Shown here in pieces: positions 3,308 to 52,135 of a stretch of DNA of 53,552 nucleotides (position 1 is the stretch's first letter; each line of letters opens with the position of its first letter). Position numbers and translations under genes: made by a program. This stretch comes from Candidatus Woesearchaeota archaeon (GTDB taxonomy: Archaea; Nanobdellota; Nanobdellia; Woesearchaeales; WAPY01): contig JBNAUL010000001.1 of assembly GCA_049700835.1 (NCBI GenBank), positions 128,491 through 182,042 of the forward strand. Reading direction: 5' to 3'. The notes beneath the pieces were generated by a model. The model did no database searches and was not told the DNA's origin. It saw nothing but the letters and a program-made list of their open reading frames with translations.

Positions 3308-3379
3308 GGGCTCGTGGTTCAACGGTAGAACGCTGCCTTCGCAGGGCAGAGGCTCCGGGTTCGAATCCCGGCGAGTCCA
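3308..3379 (+). tRNA. tRNA-Ala(CGC), CCA not encoded
   Basis: Cloverleaf: acceptor GGGCTCG/CGAGTCC with G3:U70 and A73; anticodon arm CTGCC-TTCGCAG-GGCAG; T arm CCGGG-TTCGAAT-CCCGG. Confidence 0.96.
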
Positions 3380-8404: not shown

Positions 8405-10857
8405 TCTAAAACACCTTCTTTTTCAGCAATTCTCAAACGCATTTTGACAACACTGTCAGGGTTCAAAGAAATGCTGTCAATATTGTTTTCAACCAAAAAA
8501 TCTGCGAAATCAGGGAAATCGCTAGGGGCTTGACCGCATATTCCAATCTTTCTGTTAAAGGACTTTGCGGTTTTTATAACTTGCGATATCAATCTCTTAA
8601 CAGCTTCATTACGCTCATCGTAGATTGAACTTACGAGTTCAGAGTCCCTATCAAGTCCAAGTGTTAGTTGGGTTAAATCATTGCTGCCTATGCTGAATCC
8701 ATCAAATATTTCTGAAAACTTGTCAGCCAAAACAACATTGCTTGGAATCTCGCACATAACATAAACCTCTAAACCATTTTCGTGCTGTACCAAACCATTC
8801 TTAGCCATTTCCTCCAAGACCTTTTTTCCCTCTTCAACCGTTCTACAGAAAGGAATCATCACCTTAACATTTCTAAGCCCAAAAACATTTCTCACTTTTA
8901 ATATAGCCTTACATTCAAGAGCAAACGCGTCTTTAAAATTTGGAGAATAGTATCTTGAAGCACCTCTCCAGCCAATCATCGGGTTATCTTCTCTTGGCTC
9001 AAAAATATCTCCTCCCAACAGACCAGCATACTCGTTGGTTTTGAAATCAGAGAATCTCACGATGACATCCTTTGGATAAAAAGCAGCCGCAATCATTGCA
9101 ATACCCTCAGCAAGTTTGTCAATGAAAAATTCCCTTTTGTTTTCATAACCTTCTGTGAGTTCTAAAATTTTTTTTCTAACATCAAAATCGCTAACCTTTT
9201 CAAAGAATAACAGAGCATTTGGATGAACCTTTATGTAAGAATTTATTATAAATTCTTCCCTTGCAAGCCCAACCCCATCATTTGGCAAAAATGAAAGTTT
9301 AAACGCTTCTTCAGGATTTCCAACATTCATCATAACCTTTGTTCTTGTTTTTGGGATTTCATTGACATTAATCTTTTCAACTTTGTAATCCAAAATTCCT
9401 TCATAGACGAATCCTGTTTCTCCTTCAGCGCAACTTACTGTTACCTCAGAGTTCTGTTTTAGAATTTCAGTTGCATTTCCAGTTCCAACAATGCATGGAA
9501 CCCCAAGTTCTCTGCTTACAATAGCAGCGTGGCATGTTCTTCCGCCGCGGTTGGTTACTATTGCAGAAGCAATCTTCATTATTGGCTCCCAATCAGGATC
9601 TGTCATTTCTGTAACCAAAACATCACCCTTTCTGAATTGATTTATGTGATGAATATCCTTGATTACGCTAACTCTGCCAGAACCAATCTTATCTCCAACA
9701 CTCATTCCTTTGACAAGAATTTTTGCATTTCTTTTAGCATCAGGATTAATGATGTATTTTTTAATTATGCTATTGTTCCTTTGGGAAACAACTGTTTCAG
9801 GCCTTGCCTGAACTATGAACAACTGCCCATTGATTCCATCCTTTGCCCACTCAATATCCATGGGCTTGTAATAGCCAGCCTTTTCAGAATAATAATCTTC
9901 AATAATGCAGCCCCAATTTGCCAACGCCAATATTTCATCGTCGCTGAGGGCAAAATTTTTTCTATCTGCAGGATCAACAGGAACATTTTTTGTGTGTTTA
10001 TTGCCTTCCTGAGCATAAATCATCTTAATGTCCTTGGTGCCAAGTTTTTTAGAAATGATTGCTCTATAACCCTGTTTTAATGTTGGTTTAAAGACATAGT
10101 ATTGATCAGGATTAACTGCTCCTTGAACAATATTCTCACCTAAACCATAAGAAGCATTTATTAAAACAACATCTTTGAAACCAGATTCTGTGTCTATTGT
10201 GAACATAACGCCGCTACAAGCCTTGTCAGAACGAACCATCTTTTGAACTCCAACGCTCAAAGCAACCTTGAAGTGGTCAAATCCCTTATCAGCCCTGTAT
10301 GAAATAGCCCTGTTAGTGAATAAAGAAGCAAAACACTTCTTCACAGCTTCAAGCAACTCATCGTTGCCCCTAATGTTCAAGTATGTTTCTTGTTGGCCTG
10401 CAAAACTGGCATCAGGCAAGTCCTCTGCTGTTGCAGAACTCCTTACAGCAACATCAGGATTAGAACCGTATTGCAGTCCTAAATGATAGTATGCTTCCAA
10501 AATAGCATTCTTCAATTCCTCAGGCATCATTGCATTTCTTATCAAGTACCTTATCTCGTGCCCTACTCTTTGCAGCTGCTCAATATTCTTTGTGTCAAGA
10601 TTTTTAAGAAGTTCGTTAATCTTTTCCCTTATGCCAGCCTTTTCCAAAAAATAATAGTAAGCCCTTGCAGTTATTGCAAAACCATTAGGAACATTAATAC
10701 CTTTTTTTGTTAAATTAACATACATCTCTCCCAAAGAAGCGTTTTTCCCTCCTACAAGCCGGACATCTTCAATATTTACCTGGTCAAACCACAAGATAAA
10801 GGCATCGTCTTTCCACATAAAAGCATCAACTCTTTTTTGTTTTTCAGCAAAAAACAA
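8401..10857 (-). CDS. ppsA: Phosphoenolpyruvate synthase
   Basis: VGGKNASLGEM, AVRSSATAED, GGRTCHAAIVSRE phospho-His and SIGSNDLTQ; start may be the ATG at 10818. Confidence 0.97.
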   Translation of the reverse strand: MFFAEKQKRVDAFMWKDDAFILWFDQVNIEDVRLVGGKNASLGEMYVNLTKKGINVPNGFAITARAYYYFLEKAGIREKINELLKNLDTKNIEQLQRVGHEIRYLIRNAMMPEELKNAILEAYYHLGLQYGSNPDVAVRSSATAEDLPDASFAGQQETYLNIRGNDELLEAVKKCFASLFTNRAISYRADKGFDHFKVALSVGVQKMVRSDKACSGVMFTIDTESGFKDVVLINASYGLGENIVQGAVNPDQYYVFKPTLKQGYRAIISKKLGTKDIKMIYAQEGNKHTKNVPVDPADRKNFALSDDEILALANWGCIIEDYYSEKAGYYKPMDIEWAKDGINGQLFIVQARPETVVSQRNNSIIKKYIINPDAKRNAKILVKGMSVGDKIGSGRVSVIKDIHHINQFRKGDVLVTEMTDPDWEPIMKIASAIVTNRGGRTCHAAIVSRELGVPCIVGTGNATEILKQNSEVTVSCAEGETGFVYEGILDYKVEKINVNEIPKTRTKVMMNVGNPEEAFKLSFLPNDGVGLAREEFIINSYIKVHPNALLFFEKVSDFDVRKKILELTEGYENKREFFIDKLAEGIAMIAAAFYPKDVIVRFSDFKTNEYAGLLGGDIFEPREDNPMIGWRGASRYYSPNFKDAFALECKAILKVRNVFGLRNVKVMIPFCRTVEEGKKVLEEMAKNGLVQHENGLEVYVMCEIPSNVVLADKFSEIFDGFSIGSNDLTQLTLGLDRDSELVSSIYDERNEAVKRLISQVIKTAKSFNRKIGICGQAPSDFPDFADFLVENNIDSISLNPDSVVKMRLRIAEKEGVLD

Positions 10858-11161: not shown

Positions 11162-11965
11162 CTAAAGCCCATAACAAACGCTCTTTAACTTGCAGTATCT
11201 GCACTTGTTGTTGTTCATTATTCTTGGAGGTTTTTCAGAATTCAGCATCTCTTTAACATCTTCTATTGTTTTTTTTATCTTTAAATCAACAAAAGGATTA
11301 TAGCACACAGTTCTTTCTTCATTATAATCTAAATACTTGACAACAGCCCTTTTCACTTCAAAGTTCTTAGTTTTCTTGGTTAAAATCATGTATGCTTCAG
11401 CTTGTATTCTATGAGATTCCCAAACACCTTCAGAAGGCATTTTCCCTGTTTTGAACTCAACAGGAACAAACTCGTGTTCATATTCAAGAAGCCTGTCAAT
11501 TCTTCCGCAGAGTTGCAACTCAGCATCGATGACAGGAACCTCTGATTCAATTTTTGGGGTTAGATTATTCCACAGTTCTTTTCCTGTTAGTCCTGTTTTT
11601 AGCATGAAATTATAAATAACAGTGCTTCTCTCTTTTATGTCAGAGAGTATGCTGTTCCAAGTTAGTTTGTAAGCATCAACAAAACTTGTGTTGAACTCTT
11701 TCAACAAATCAGAGTTTTCTCTAATGATATTCAGTAGAATGTTTGAACTTTCAATCCTGAAAATTCTTTCTATGAAATCCTTGTCCATTCTGCTGATTTC
11801 GCACACAATTCTTTCCTGTTCTTTGTTGATAACATCAAAAGCTCTGTGCTTCAATCTGCCTATAGCAACCTCTTTGCTCAACGGCTCTTTTATCTTTAGC
11901 GTCTTTAGCAAAAATAGTTTTCTTGGGCAATACTCAAAACTTGCAAGTTCTGTTACATAGAGCAT
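11162..11965 (-). CDS. cas4: Solo Cas4-like PD-(D/E)xK nuclease with 4Fe-4S motif
   Basis: N-terminal YCPRK, GRID..PVEFKTG, QAEAY and C-terminal CRYC-x5-C; no cas operon or array nearby. Confidence 0.85.
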   Translation of the reverse strand: MLYVTELASFEYCPRKLFLLKTLKIKEPLSKEVAIGRLKHRAFDVINKEQERIVCEISRMDKDFIERIFRIESSNILLNIIRENSDLLKEFNTSFVDAYKLTWNSILSDIKERSTVIYNFMLKTGLTGKELWNNLTPKIESEVPVIDAELQLCGRIDRLLEYEHEFVPVEFKTGKMPSEGVWESHRIQAEAYMILTKKTKNFEVKRAVVKYLDYNEERTVCYNPFVDLKIKKTIEDVKEMLNSEKPPRIMNNNKCRYCKLKSVCYGL

Positions 11966-12043
11966 GTTAAAAAACCAAGATTTCTTTTTTAAATATATTT
12001 TGTTTGGTTTTGTCCTGTGATTTTTTTCGGATTTTTAGAAAAA

Positions 12044-47824: not shown

Positions 47825-48122
47825 GTAGAGGGGCTGTAAGCCGTCTTCTGTCAGCTCCCAAGAACTTAATCTTGGAAGAGCTGTTTTGACATTCTACTGA
47901 GCATCCTTGAAAGGATTTGCACGGCCAGGCCTGCGTTTCACCACATCCTTTTGGAATGTCAGCGGGTTATCTTGTTTTTCTCGCGAAAAACTTCTCCAGC
48001 ATCATCCTACCAAAAGGCTGTTTTGTTTCTGTGCAGTTGCCTTCTATTTGTTGAACTCCTGTGGAGTGGCCTTTTTTTGTGGACGGACTTTCCTCACAAT
48101 AGACAGTCAAGCGCCCCTCTAC
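47825..48122 (-). ncRNA. rnpB: RNase P RNA
   Basis: Minus strand: P1 GTAGAGGGGC/GCCCCTCTAC, CR-I GAGGAAAGTCC, CR-II ACAGAAA, CR-III TGAAAC, CR-V ACAGAAGACGGCTTA. Confidence 0.95.
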
Positions 48123-48226: not shown

Positions 48227-48730
48227 ATGGAAATCTTTCAGGAACAGATGCTGAAAGCAAACAAGCATCTTAAAATAGCAGACCATATGCTCTATGTAAC
48301 ATATCCTTTGCTAAAAGATTACAAACTTATGCCTTTGATTTTGGAAAACATATTCTTAGCACTCACAAATGCGCTTTCAGCAATGCTGAATTACGAGCTT
48401 GTTTTTAAGAGAGTTCCTAAATTTTCTGATAATTTTGAATCAAAATTCAATGTTTTTAAAGAGCATTGCTTCAGCAGATACCATTTTGACAAGGAAATAC
48501 TGAACATTATTGCTGAAGTAAAGGAACTGGTTTTAAAGCACAGAAAGAGCCCTGTTGAATTTTACAAGAACGATAAATTCGTAATATGCTCTGAAGACTA
48601 TAAAATCATAGTCCTCTCGATTGAAGAAATTAAAAAGTACATTGCCAAAACAAAAGTTTTTATACAAGAAACGAATAACATTATTTCTAAGCATGAGCGA
48701 ATATTTAAAGGAGGCATATCAGGAGCTTAA
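48227..48730 (+). CDS. Conserved hypothetical helical protein (HEPN-like fold possible)
   Basis: ANKHLKIADHMLYVTY; similar to the next ORF. Confidence 0.7.
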   Translation: MEIFQEQMLKANKHLKIADHMLYVTYPLLKDYKLMPLILENIFLALTNALSAMLNYELVFKRVPKFSDNFESKFNVFKEHCFSRYHFDKEILNIIAEVKELVLKHRKSPVEFYKNDKFVICSEDYKIIVLSIEEIKKYIAKTKVFIQETNNIISKHERIFKGGISGA

Positions 48731-49184
48731 GAGGGCTGAACACTCCTTGTTCGTAAGTTTAAAGTACACGAGAACAATAGAAGTCATCTCCTCAATAATT
48801 TCAAGGCTTGTTTCCTTTTATGACAAGGTAATTGACGCTTTGATAGAACTTAAAAGCAAGAAAGGCACTGAGATTGAAATTCCAAAGAGCCCTGGACTGA
48901 AAGGAAACATAGTTAAGGAATTGTTTTCAGAAGATGCAAAAATAAGAGAGGAAATAGAGTTTTATTTTTTGCTTAGGGCAATAGCGCGTTCCAAAAAAAC
49001 AGCATTCAGCGAATACAGGAAACATGTTGCGATAATGGTTGAAATAGAAGGCAAAGACTTGAAGATTGACATAGAAAAAATAACAGAATACTACAGGAGA
49101 GCCCAGAGCTTCTTTGGATATGTTCTTGAAAATTATTTTAAATTGGACATGAATTATTTTAACGAGATAAACGATTTTTATTAA
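48693..49184 (+). CDS. Conserved hypothetical helical protein, paralogue of the upstream gene
   Basis: AYQELKRAEHSLFVSL; ATG at 48693. Confidence 0.7.
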   Translation: MSEYLKEAYQELKRAEHSLFVSLKYTRTIEVISSIISRLVSFYDKVIDALIELKSKKGTEIEIPKSPGLKGNIVKELFSEDAKIREEIEFYFLLRAIARSKKTAFSEYRKHVAIMVEIEGKDLKIDIEKITEYYRRAQSFFGYVLENYFKLDMNYFNEINDFY

Positions 49185-49196
49185 AGGGATTTCAAA

Positions 49197-49976
49197 ATGA
49201 CAAAAGTGCTTTTGGTAACATCAGGAAGCGGAGGGGTTGGAAAAACAACAGTAGCAATAAACTTGGCTTCTGCGCTTAAGGATTTTGGAAGGCATGTTGT
49301 TCTCTTAGACTTGAATGTTTATTCTGCTGACGCAAGTTTGCATCTTGGAGCTTTTAAAGTTGATTATGCATTGCAAGATGCTGCAAAAAAAGGGAACAAC
49401 ATACACGAAGCAGTTTACATGCACTCTTCTGGATTATTAGTTATACCTTCAAAAATCTCATTTAACGAAGAAATAGACATTCAAAACATTAAAAAGATAA
49501 TAAATTGGCTGCTCGGAAAAACAGAACTGATAATAATTGACGCTCCAGTAATCTTTGACAGGAATGCATTAAAAATAGCCGAAAACTGTGACGAAGCAAT
49601 TCTTGTTACAACACCTGATGAAATTTCAGCGATAAAAACCCTTAAAGCTATTAAGATGCTCGAAGAAAAAGGAGTTCCTGTTATAGGAATTATAGTAAAC
49701 AAATTCAAGAGCTCAGAATTCAACCTCAGCAAGGAAGAAATAAAAAACTTCATAGAAAAGCCGATACTTGAGTTTGTCAAGGAAGACAAGAGCCTGCAGG
49801 AATCGTTAAAATTGAAGAATCCTGTTGTTTATATCCATCCAGAGTCAGATGCAACTCAAAGTTTCAAGTATTTGGCTTCAAAACTTATTGGAGAGAACTA
49901 TGCTAAAAAAATTGAGGAGAAGGAAAAGGAAGGTTTATACTATTACGTACTGAAGCAGCTTGGGCTGAGAAAATAA
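49197..49976 (+). CDS. minD: MinD/ParA-family ATPase
   Basis: SGSGGVGKTT, IIIDAP, LVTTPD and GIIVNK motifs; amphipathic C-terminus. Confidence 0.85.
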   Translation: MTKVLLVTSGSGGVGKTTVAINLASALKDFGRHVVLLDLNVYSADASLHLGAFKVDYALQDAAKKGNNIHEAVYMHSSGLLVIPSKISFNEEIDIQNIKKIINWLLGKTELIIIDAPVIFDRNALKIAENCDEAILVTTPDEISAIKTLKAIKMLEEKGVPVIGIIVNKFKSSEFNLSKEEIKNFIEKPILEFVKEDKSLQESLKLKNPVVYIHPESDATQSFKYLASKLIGENYAKKIEEKEKEGLYYYVLKQLGLRK

Positions 49977-49999: not shown

Positions 50000-50509
50000 A
50001 TGATAAGCACAGCAGAAAGGTTGAGGGCAAAGGGTTGGAGTGATGAGGAGATAGCAAGGGCTCTGGAAATATTAAACTCTGAACCAAAAACAAACATACC
50101 TGTATTTTATAAGGTGTTGTATTGGGTAGCCCTTATTGCTGCAATAGTAGGAAACACTTTCGTGGCAATAATCTTGGTACCGTTGCTGATACTCCTACAG
50201 AAAAAGGCAATTCTACTTGTCATACTCTTGATCATTGTGTTGTCTCTTTCCTTTGGAGCCTTGTTCAATTCTCTTTTGAAGGAAATAGAATCTTTGTCAA
50301 AAAAAACATATGTAATAACAAACATTTTTCTGCCAACGCTGGCTTTCCTTAACATGTTTTTCATAAGCAATTTAAGCAATTTCATAATTTCAAGATTTGA
50401 ATTAAAAAACATACAGAACCCATCAAACCTTGCTCTTTTTTATGGTTTTTTATTTCTTTCCCCTTTTCTGATTTCAAAGGTAAGGGAAACAATAAAAATT
50501 ATAATATAA
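50000..50509 (+). CDS. Hypothetical membrane protein
   Basis: N-terminal LRAKGWSDEEI motif followed by about 4 TM helices. Confidence 0.75.
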   Translation: MISTAERLRAKGWSDEEIARALEILNSEPKTNIPVFYKVLYWVALIAAIVGNTFVAIILVPLLILLQKKAILLVILLIIVLSLSFGALFNSLLKEIESLSKKTYVITNIFLPTLAFLNMFFISNLSNFIISRFELKNIQNPSNLALFYGFLFLSPFLISKVRETIKIII

Positions 50510-50691
50510 AATTAATATAAAATATTAAATAACTTCAATTATGCAAACGCAACATTAAGATTTTTGTAGTCTTTTTTAAGTTAATAAGAAATTTTTAATT
50601 TAAGTTTTTTAGAGTAGTAAAAAAGCTTAGAGCAAACAAGATTTAAAACCAGAGAACCCTTGAGAGTTTATAAGAAAATTTTGGCTAATTA

Positions 50692-51060
50692 GCGTTATAC
50701 ACCCGAACAAGCAGAGTGCAGTGAGAGCCAACAGAGCTGACATTAGTCCTCATTGGCGTGGTCAAGGGAAATTGAATTTGGAATAACATAAATTTCCCGC
50801 AGAGTAGAATTATAGAAATTATGAATAAATAAATTTTAAGTTATTATTTCTGCCAAACAAAGGCAGACAAAAGGTCCGAAGGACAAAAGCGGCACTCCCT
50901 CTTAAGGATAAGAAAAAATTTCGTTAAAATTTTGTTAGATGATTTGCGAGGCAATTTCGTTATTTCTTTTTTGTTTTATGAATTTTAACGAAGGCAACAA
51001 CATCGTAATAATTTACAGTCTCCTTTCCGTGAAAGGCAGGTTTTCGAATTGCACATAACA
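50692..51060 (+). ncRNA. Unassigned large structured RNA candidate (~370 nt)
   Basis: No ORF; many nested stems; TTTATAAG at 50667. Confidence 0.55.
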
Positions 51061-51210
51061 ACTATTAAACAAGATAAATATTTGATTGATATAACTAAAA
51101 GAGATAAAAAGAGAGATTTTATAAAATTGTTTTGATTATAGCTTTTCTTTTTTAAGGATGTGGCAGAAATTATTTCCCAGAGAATAAGATAAAAAGAATA
51201 TAATGCAAAT

Positions 51211-51310
51211 NNNNNNNNNNNNNNNNNNNNNNNNNNNNNNNNNNNNNNNNNNNNNNNNNNNNNNNNNNNNNNNNNNNNNNNNNNNNNNNNNNNNNNNNNN
51301 NNNNNNNNNN
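51211..51310. other. Assembly gap (100 N)
   Basis: N run. Confidence 0.98.
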
Positions 51311-51427
51311 ATTTACTCTAAGAATATAATAAGTTATAGCCAAATAAAAAGAAAGCTTTAAATATGACCTCTAAAAGCCTTAATTAAGTCAAAGCTGATG
51401 TTTTGGCAAATTTTGATAAACAAGCCC

Positions 51428-51528
51428 GAGTTCACTCTCGCGAAAATGATTGCAAAATGATTGTAGGAGAGTGGGCGACCTTAGGGTAATATTTCAAGCT
51501 CAAGGTTGCTTATTCTCTGAGTGAACTC
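51428..51528 (+). promoter_or_regulatory. Structured 5' leader upstream of the rps13 operon (candidate r-leader)
   Basis: 10-bp GAGTTCACTC/GAGTGAACTC stem enclosing a 16-bp GU-rich stem. Confidence 0.55.
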
Positions 51529-51568
51529 TATTTATCACAAAAAATAACAAAAGATAATTTCAACTAAA

Positions 51569-52135
51569 ATGGAAGATAAAAGAGAAAAAACAAGGAATGT
51601 TGAAGAGCAGAAAACAGGCAAATTTGAAAAATTACAAAAACCACAAGACAAGGATTTCAAGCACATAGTCAGAATAATGAACACAGACCTTCCAGGAGAA
51701 AAACCTGCAATTATAGTACTTCAAAACATAAAGGGAATCAGCTTTATGTTTGCCAATGCTGTTTGCAGGGTTGCAAACATTGAACCTTCAACAAAGATTG
51801 GAACTTTAAACGAAGCTCAAACAGAAAGAATACAGCAAATACTTAATAATCCACAAGAATTTGGAATACCTTCATGGCTATACAACAGAAGAAAAGAGCC
51901 GTATTCTGGAAAGGACTATCATGTTTTGGGATTGAATGTTGAACTCACAAGAAAAGAGGACATTGATAAGATGAAGATAATGAAGAGCTATAAAGGAGTG
52001 AGGCACATTTACGGGTTGCCTGTCAGAGGGCAACGCACAAGATCAAACTTCAGGAAAAACAAGGGAAAGGTTATTGGAGTTTTGAAAAGAGCTGCGAAAG
52101 CTGCAAAGAATGCAAAAGAACAGGAAAAGAAATAA
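51569..52135 (+). CDS. rps13: 30S ribosomal protein S13
   Basis: HIVRIMNTDLPG, IPSWLYNRRK and SYKGVRH..GLPVRGQRT motifs. Confidence 0.97.
   Translation: MEDKREKTRNVEEQKTGKFEKLQKPQDKDFKHIVRIMNTDLPGEKPAIIVLQNIKGISFMFANAVCRVANIEPSTKIGTLNEAQTERIQQILNNPQEFGIPSWLYNRRKEPYSGKDYHVLGLNVELTRKEDIDKMKIMKSYKGVRHIYGLPVRGQRTRSNFRKNKGKVIGVLKRAAKAAKNAKEQEKK

Follow-up and report, generated by a model that had tools for sequence, protein, structure and literature searches.

A hairpin-rich, modular sequence family of DPANN archaea with a covarying core and occasional integrase neighbors: a candidate structured RNA gene family

Large orphan noncoding RNAs of bacteria, such as GOLLD, ROOL, and HEARO, are linked to mobile DNA, and pneumococcal BOX elements are modular intergenic repeats. 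Split and permuted tRNA genes exist, the halves of which re-form. The enzyme of IS110 is a DEDD/serine recombinase. To our knowledge, archaea have only a handful of structured RNA classes other than rRNA, tRNA, SRP RNA, RNase P RNA, and guide sRNAs, and the DPANN archaea are almost unexplored in this respect. Genes for tRNA, tmRNA, and 4.5S RNA (ffs) serve as attachment (att) sites of integrase-bearing elements, including the tRNA-targeting island builders of Prochlorococcus (10.1101/2020.12.28.424599; see also PMC12540744). Here, we describe a stretch at 50692–51060 of a 53,552-nt piece of a Candidatus Woesearchaeota archaeon genome (assembly GCA_049700835.1), the whole of which is referred to as the window. 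The original prediction read this stretch as one ~370-nt structured RNA preceded by its own TATA box. Our analysis instead resolves it into two adjacent modules of a widespread, unannotated, hairpin-rich family of Woesearchaeota/Nanoarchaeia-type DPANN archaea, probably small RNA genes with integrase genes next to some of them.

Read directly from the sequence, all of the predicted motifs are present at their positions (Table 1), and the stretch is ORF-free in the sense that its longest ORFs reach only 39 aa. Two small candidate protein genes (a 39-aa + strand ORF and a 33-aa − strand ORF) were rejected: the ATG frame is stopped in G001, a genome of the same genus, and the indels are not multiples of three. 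The stretch had also been described as richer in G+C than its flanks. This is correct only in part: its first third (50650–50800, 0.43–0.46) is clearly above the flanks (0.14–0.29), and values beyond it are 0.26–0.39. Simple promoter and terminator scans of the + strand gave nothing above shuffles. The genes preceding the element are one for a ParA/MinD-type ATPase (49197–49976) and two without a Pfam match (48621–49184 and 50000–50509), and the rps13–rps4–rps11–rpoD cluster lies downstream. The 100-N run at 51211–51310 is a scaffolding artefact with no sequence missing; a third contig carries 9 extra letters at the 51208/51311 join.

The prediction had found no match to tRNA, SRP RNA, RNase P RNA, or intron classes, and Rfam and ARAGORN agree for this stretch. 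At gathering score, the whole window contained only RNase P RNA (RF00373; sole match at 47825–48122 on the − strand, 120.4 bits) and a single tRNA (3308–3379), neither of them in the stretch, and ARAGORN returned no tRNA genes in 50000–51600. Rfam 15, including its ribozymes, C/D and H/ACA sRNAs, and introns, gave no gathering or credible sub-threshold match there: a permissive scan of 50550–51210 produced five matches with E-values of 3.4–5.9, all on the − strand and far below gathering, and four related loci yielded one chance match only (E 0.63). A divergent SRP RNA was considered and rejected, given that the archaeal model (RF01857) had no match in 50550–51210 even at E ≤ 10 and that a canonical SRP RNA is encoded elsewhere in the genome (G000:C1:190556–190827, 148.7 bits); the sequence AGGUCCGAAGGAC is one that we take to resemble SRP RNA helix 8. 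A divergent 5S rRNA, suggested by the CCCGAAC motif, likewise had no model match, with a canonical 5S rRNA (RF00001) located at G000:C1:89715–89832 (72 bits). An H/ACA or C/D sRNA was rejected on boxes that were out of place by eye and on the negative Rfam result, and the analysis lent no support to a ribozyme function. We found no description of the element in the literature; preprint supplements may list it among unnamed clusters. It is not described in the available parts of the archaeal integrons paper (PMC9668308) or of two 2026 preprints on noncoding sequence mining.

Single-sequence folding did not bear out the expectation that the stretch folds better than shuffles. The 369 nt gave a z-score of −1.34 on the + strand, with 9 of 100 shuffles equal or better, and −1.74 on the − strand; its A and B parts, defined below, gave +0.90 and −0.98 when folded alone. 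These near-zero z-scores, together with the AT-rich sequence, would suit an inert spacer whose helices arose by chance. We assign that reading a negligible probability, as it is already contradicted by conservation across many families with compensatory changes.

BLAST against 40 relatives did reveal conservation, but only at 50910–51067, the remaining matches being short and AT-rich. The relatives matched there were G001 (80% over 158 nt), G014 (71% over 142 nt), G005 (77% over 80 nt), and G022. A covariance model of this core, R1, was built from six sequences and scored 50896–51003 of the window, itself a seed member, at 102.5 bits and G001 at 84.7 bits. The window carries the stem CGUUAAAnn/nnUUUAACG, the loop UGUUA, the inner 4-bp hairpin, and the 3′ GAAGGCA that characterize the R1 family. 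The conserved core of the family, hereafter the A unit, corresponds to about 50850–51059 or, in a narrower delimitation, to about 50868–51059. What relatives conserve as a unit is the 3′ part, rather than one ~370-nt RNA starting ~22 nt after TTTATAAG, and the TATA-like stretch and palindrome belonging to the A unit itself fall inside the proposed RNA. A conserved, structured, + strand element without an Rfam match survives from the prediction of a possibly undescribed noncoding RNA; its description as a single RNA does not.

Table 1. Sequence features in and around the stretch (window coordinates; P_A is the main stem-loop of the A unit; A2, A8, and A9 are alignments)
Feature	Position	Strand	Remark or basis
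TTTATAAG	50667..50674	+	TATA box of the original prediction (putative promoter element)
B junction motif AAGAAAATTTTGGCTAAT - TAGC - GTTATAC	50672..50700	+	Same motif in relatives, A8
B core CCCGAAC ... GTGAGAGCC [GCCAA/TTGGC hairpin] GCGTGGTC	50701..50765	+	Regular expression, alignments
GAGTGC / GCACTC	50714 / 50892	+	Enclosing helix of the original prediction
GCCAA / TTGGC	50727 / 50753	+	Hairpin in B core
GGGAAATT / AATTTCCC	50766 / 50791	+	H hairpin
H hairpin, then conserved GCAGAGT	50766..50805	+	Homologous stems read by eye
GCAGAGTAG / TTATTTCTGC	50799 / 50844	+	Helix of the original prediction
AT-rich linker with TATA-like stretch (~50825–50842)	50806..50866	+	Counterpart of the TATA-like stretch and palindrome before A units
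Palindrome CTGCC-AAACAAA-GGCAG	50850–50866	+	By eye, 8 loci: L014, L016, L018, L019, L020, L023, L024, L090
GTCC-GAA-GGAC	50874..50884	+	First hairpin of A unit
C-rich box GCGGCACTCCCTC and A/T tract ATAAGAAAAAATTT	50888..50919	+	A2, A8
P_A: 12-bp stem, loop TTGTTAG, inner TTGC-GAG-GCAA (50944–50954), U-rich 3′ loop strand	50920..50992	+	R1, covariation
TTCGTTAAAATT / AATTTTAACGAA	50920–31 / 50981–92	+	12-bp stem of P_A
GGCAACAAC, CCTTTC hairpin, CAGGTTTTCGAATTGCACATAAC ending UAAC	50993..51059	+	A unit 3′ junction motif, A8
CCTTTC-CGT-GAAAGG	51022–51036	+	Hairpin, CCTTTC at 51022 and GAAAGG at 51031
Decayed junction hairpin AACTATTAAAC...TGATTGATAT	51060..51130	+	Integrase-linked type, A9 versus G212
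100-N run	51211..51310		Scaffolding artefact: contigs of two DNA runs connect 51208 to 51311
Possible third, B-like module GGCAAATTTTGATAAAC - AAGCCCGAG ... GGAGAGTGGGCGACC	51395..51545	+	By-eye resemblance; found by no model

In alignment A8, the family follows a common order: a TATA-like stretch and palindrome, the first hairpin, a C-rich box, AAAAAUUUGGG with or without a GA-rich hairpin, P_A, GAAGGCA, a CCU...AGG hairpin, and GGCAG-N-AAGAAAAUUUUGGnUAAC. In the region of the C-rich box and A/T tract, most relatives also have a GGGUGAAG...GA-rich hairpin, which is missing from the window. Homology extends further upstream in L018 and L090, weakening a promoter reading of the TATA-like stretch. 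The loop of the inner hairpin of P_A is also found as GUAA and UACG. A units further contain AAAAUUUGGG tracts, GA-rich internal loops, and conserved loop motifs, and the latter two features suggest that the unit may be a protein-binding scaffold. UAAC is followed by a junction hairpin closed at its base by pairing between UAAC(A) and (U)GUUA; it encloses anywhere from ~10 nt to over 100 nt, with conserved sub-hairpins and the joiners GAAGU and AUUUGGG. Past GUUA stand various 3′ modules, the B type among them.

Covariation supports the structure of the A core, with the caveat that selection on inverted repeats as binding sites of dimeric proteins could produce a similar pattern. Across 38 R1 matches (32 distinct), 91.6% of cells were paired versus 73.5 ± 1.3% in shuffles, and none of 500 shuffles reached the observed value; sliding the partner by 1–3 columns as a control gave paired fractions of 28–41%. 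Changes on both sides were found in 12 of the 15 pairs of the 11-bp P_A stem and inner hairpin in the model-fitted alignment, and a MAFFT-only alignment of 25 longer sequences also recovered the stem, both partners having changed in 6 of 9 pairs. As predicted, G–U pairs favor the + strand (40 G–T versus 15 A–C cells in the model-fitted alignment, part of the excess stemming from two columns with a G–U consensus).

Five of the eight predicted helices are supported by relatives and three are not. The 12-bp stem has strong comparative support, as does its inner TTGC-GAG-GCAA hairpin. Compensatory variants were read by eye for GTCC/GGAC (GUGC/GCAC, GUCU/AGAC, and GUUC/GGAC at the same place), for CCTTTC/GAAAGG (CUAUC/GAUAG and CCUC/GAGG), and for GGGAAATT/AATTTCCC, where GGGAAAUU/AAUUUCCC varies to GGGAU/AUCCC, GGGAG/CUCCC, and CUAAAAUUU/AAAUUUUAG. 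Shorter hairpins occupy the place homologous to GCCAA/TTGGC. The GCAGAGTAG/TTATTTCTGC helix, by contrast, competes with the palindrome CTGCC...GGCAG and uses the conserved GCAGAGU motif, and both the enclosing GAGTGC/GCACTC helix and the end pairing GTTAT/ATAAC connect two modules that are not adjacent in that order in relatives.

The first of these modules, at 50672–50815, is a separate, stand-alone 3′ module of the B type with a minimal junction. Its conserved sequence begins at 50672 and so overlaps the proposed TATA box: TTTATAAG runs into the start of the conserved junction motif, which reads (GGCAG)UAAGAAAAUUUUGG in relatives. The window's own motif at 50672–50700 reduces the ...UAAC[hairpin]GUUA... 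junction to a minimum. With a B module at 50672–50815 and an A unit at ~50850–51059, the predicted 370 nt joins a B module to the next A unit, in the reverse of the usual A-then-B order. The B-type consensus is CCCGAAC...GUGAGAGC[hairpin]GCGUGGUC followed by a stem and GCAGAGU, and a regular expression for its core retrieved eight distinct sequences (the window, G005, G022, G135, G220, and G221 three times). B homology is drawn from this expression and from reading by eye, since an nhmmer profile of the B cores of seven relatives missed the window's own copy; RNAalifold on the B alignment was uninformative. Stems homologous to the H hairpin but of other sequence, each followed by (GC)AGAGU-like letters, were seen by eye in G140, G221, G183, and G000 (C1:362690). 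In relatives, the B type lies downstream of A units or alone. G221 has B-type or junction modules that stand alone, as does the window's genome at two other sites, and stand-alone B modules could be displaced 3′ parts. Those two sites, G000:C1:362570–362760 and 363170–363370, are outside the window and carry junction-type modules on either side of a small gene for a SET-domain protein. MAFFT also aligned 50545–50670 as a second, degenerate A unit, which was rejected on the grounds that R1 with filters off gave nothing on the + strand better than E 0.7.

The B-then-A order also invites a different reading, in which the ~370 nt form one transcript with circularly permuted modules, the ends of which, GUUAU (50694) and AUAAC (51059), would re-form the junction helix, possibly as a circular or end-paired RNA. 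UAAC and GUUA are indeed the base strands of the junction hairpin in relatives and stand, reversed, at both ends of the 370 nt in the window; a block shared by G014 and G133 likewise has GUUAUGCG as its start and passes from the tail of a B module to an A unit; and pairing of GAGTGC with GCACTC could fold the B part back onto the leader of the A unit. However, the TATA-like stretch and palindrome typical of the region upstream of A units lie between the two modules, G001 has an A unit alone with no B module, and B-type modules without an A unit are seen in G221 and at other sites of G000. No second case of the exact B-then-A arrangement was found. A bulge-helix-bulge splice motif at the junction was sought and rejected; the G098 helix runs through without a break, apart from a 2-nt bulge. 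We consider a permuted transcript quite unlikely.

R1 detected the core in 26 of the 151 genomes sampled from the order and in 3 of the 6 genomes of the family; G004, which is 98% complete and of the same genus as the carrier G005, gave no match. In the phylum-wide sample, the 26 carriers among 151 high-quality genomes comprised 24 of the same order and 2 of other orders of the class, with up to six A units per genome. A 17-mer of the family, searched in species genomes, led to records titled Candidatus Woesearchaeota, Nanoarchaeia, and Nanoarchaeota, and R1 matched 15 of the 23 loci with archaeal titles and 1 of the 7 with bacterial titles. One locus, L163, in a record titled Parcubacteria group bacterium, has an A-unit match of 64.8 bits, for which mis-binning or transfer into a CPR bacterium is possible. 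A viral origin was rejected, as three exact patterns located 77 loci in a viral collection and none of them matched R1. The distribution is patchy and not syntenic, unlike that of a housekeeping att-site gene, and we count this against our preferred reading of an RNA gene that acts as a hot spot.

A units are physically linked to integrase genes in a consistent arrangement. A Phage_integrase gene lies downstream on the same strand, 134–1137 nt past the core, for 7 of 51 A units, 11 of these 51 having less than 700 nt of downstream sequence; a script run over the same 51 reported none upstream or on the opposite strand. The linked recombinases match PF00589 and PF13495, are XerC/D-like, and measure 205–282 aa. 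In G220, two different A units run into an identical hairpin-plus-integrase sequence. Approached from the integrase side, 20 integrase genes begin no more than ~1 kb from a contig start, and upstream of 12 of them a UAAC-NN-CUAUUA hairpin was read by eye. This count rests on a short motif: the stretches are mostly truncated, and R1 with filters off confirmed none of 40 integrase-upstream stretches at E < 0.1 (best 16.7 bits, E 0.45). None of 18 internal top-scoring integrases carries the element, and integrase genes show no enrichment among carriers, being present in 23 of 26 genomes that have the element and in 102 of 125 that lack it.

Most internal XerA-like genes are directly preceded by an 11-6-11 palindrome, GTTCGCACAAT-GTATAT-TGTGCGAAC (at least 13 of 18 by eye; L289, L294, L297, L299, L303, L304, L305, and others), which looks like a dif site beside its own recombinase gene. 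Direct repeats of CACTGGACA occur just upstream of the TATA-like box of the integrase in L269, L271, L285, L286, and L014 and may be recombinase or regulator binding sites. No direct repeats that could delimit an integrated element were found within 8–20 kb downstream of four integrase-linked loci: repeats of at least 14 nt came down to a single inverted match of 24 nt and a 15-nt match that falls within the integrase gene.

The window itself retains a trace of this arrangement. Its A unit is followed by a hairpin in which 25 of 31 positions agree with the integrase-linked hairpin of G212 and 7 of 10 stem pairs persist. A AAAAGAGAGATTTTATAAAA stretch comes next and looks like the promoter region of integrase genes in relatives. 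Neither tblastn nor a PF00589 search detected an integrase gene or remnant in the window or genome. With a decayed junction hairpin after the A unit and no integrase left, the locus looks like a relic.

The invariable order of RNA then integrase, on the same strand and at short spacing, could also mean that the A unit is an RNA partner (guide, scaffold, or regulator) of the downstream tyrosine recombinase, in the manner of the bridge RNAs of IS110, and the invariant loop UGUUA is complementary to the invariant junction UAACA. Yet covariation between loop and junction was not seen in A8, 44 of 51 A units have no adjoining integrase, none is present in the genome of the window, and we found no such case for tyrosine recombinases in the literature. 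An RNA partner of this kind seems very unlikely to us, and even when it is pooled with a permuted or split gene that re-forms the UAAC/GUUA helix, the two together remain unlikely.

Mosaic sequence relationships accompany the junction. Blocks of 140–410 nt are 80–96% identical between genomes of different families and end at UAAC, GAAGU, or GUUA, in the case of the A unit's 3′ UAAC at it or just past it; the block common to G014 and G133, which belong to two families, spans 410 nt at 93.9% identity with unrelated flanks. A contig from run X1, derived from a co-occurring second population, is homologous to 50977–51059 (83 nt, 7 differences, 1 gap) and diverges on both sides. The hot-spring populations sampled in runs X1 and X2 carry the window's locus. 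A units sit in variable regions, often right behind the stop codon of a same-strand accessory gene, sometimes in arrays with 2–4 kb spacing, and many are found at contig ends. Their neighbors encode methyltransferases, Fic and LemA proteins, P-type ATPases, and proteins without known function. On L094 of G221, two segments (9010–9600 and 11401–12007) contain unrelated ORFs of 126 and 124 aa (BLASTP E 0.03) between flanks that are 91–100% identical. These flanks contain a stretch resembling a promoter, an inverted repeat of 14 nt that surrounds the ORF, and an A unit, an arrangement suggestive of cassette exchange.

The main rival to an RNA gene is a DNA-level recombination site, either an attP/attL-type arm or core or a set of attC-like single-stranded DNA hairpin sites for cassette shuffling by tyrosine recombinases. 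The linkage to integrases fits this explanation, as do the units of G235 and G221 that directly follow accessory genes on the same strand in arrays 2–4 kb apart, the unrelated ORF pair of G221 within near-identical flanks that include an A unit, and TAAC...GTTA at the base of the junction hairpin, which recalls R″/R′ of attC. A/T tracts are conserved as well, and C-GNA-G triloops, which are also stable DNA mini-hairpins, are frequent. Under the criterion used, an attC site has R″ (RYYYAAC) on its 5′ side and R′ (GTTRRRY) on its 3′ side and spans 57–141 nt, whereas P_A reads 5′ CGTTAAA ... TTTAACG 3′ and so has the opposite polarity, with GTT 5′ and AAC 3′; the TAAC...GTTA junction hairpin, compared with attC, often encloses 60–100 nt of conserved sub-hairpins. 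Further points against a DNA site are units of 200–450 nt with conserved loops (UACG and GUAA among them) and GA-rich internal loops, a G–T excess on one strand, U-tracts after the B modules, and a window genome that has no tyrosine recombinase. On balance, we regard a DNA-level site as rather unlikely.

Most likely, the A unit is a small structured RNA gene of about 190–250 nt on the + strand. It ends in the conserved junction ...GGCAG-N-AAGAAAAUUUUGGnUAAC followed by a variable hairpin, and different 3′ modules and tyrosine-recombinase (integrase) gene modules are found joined on at that junction. Given these varied 3′ and integrase modules, the RNA gene would be a hot spot of recombination or integration in the same way as tRNA genes, and the window would show a stand-alone B module beside a relic locus. 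In favor of RNA, we count the one-strand pairing with G–U, the GUAA and UACG loops, the GA-rich internal loops, the U-tracts after B modules, and the fixed place of the TATA-like stretch; against the reading stand the missing thermodynamic signal, the negative search for delimiting repeats, and the lack of an integrase in the genome of the window. No RNA run was found to contain the stretch, a further point against. The conservation, covariation, modular make-up, and integrase linkage are direct observations, and we infer from them that the A unit is transcribed, that it serves as an att site, and that this locus is a relic. Taken as a whole, a structured RNA gene family acting as a recombination or integration hot spot is a reading to which we give roughly half of our credence.

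The element matters in several ways. Covariation supports this multi-module element, and about one in six of the sampled genomes of a large order carry it, often in multiple copies; it is physically tied to integrase genes and accessory-gene islands and up to 94% identical across families. As a hot spot formed by an RNA gene, it would constitute a non-tRNA integration site in archaea and a handle on the mobile elements of DPANN archaea, and it would explain the assembly breaks there. Should the RNA act together with the recombinase, the two would represent a new kind of RNA–protein recombination system, and an RNA partner or a permuted gene would each be a new mechanism in DPANN archaea.

Among known systems, the att sites in tRNA, tmRNA, and ffs genes resemble the A unit in having an integrase directly beside the 3′ part of a structured RNA gene (here, 7 of 51 units), alternative 3′ parts, partial copies, and clustered accessory genes. 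They differ in that the A unit is not a tRNA or an Rfam family, is patchy and multi-copy rather than universal, and showed no flanking direct repeats at the four loci searched. The large bacterial RNAs GOLLD, ROOL, and HEARO and the BOX elements share a multi-domain plan with variable peripheral modules and a patchy occurrence in variable regions, but show no sequence or Rfam similarity to the present element, the lineage of which is archaeal. Integron attC sites and cassette arrays, including those of archaeal integrons (PMC9668308), likewise place hairpin sites after accessory ORFs in same-strand arrays with tyrosine recombinases nearby, have AAC...GTT at the hairpin base as the junction hairpin does, and can occur as arrays without an integrase; A units are much longer, more conserved in sequence, and opposite in the polarity of their main hairpin, and the recombinases linked to them are XerC/D-like proteins of 250–285 aa. 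The bridge RNA or seekRNA of IS110 (PMC11208158) is similarly a structured noncoding RNA with internal loops just upstream of a recombinase gene, whereas the recombinases that neighbor A units are of the Phage_integrase (tyrosine) type, and loop–target covariation was not seen in the family described here.
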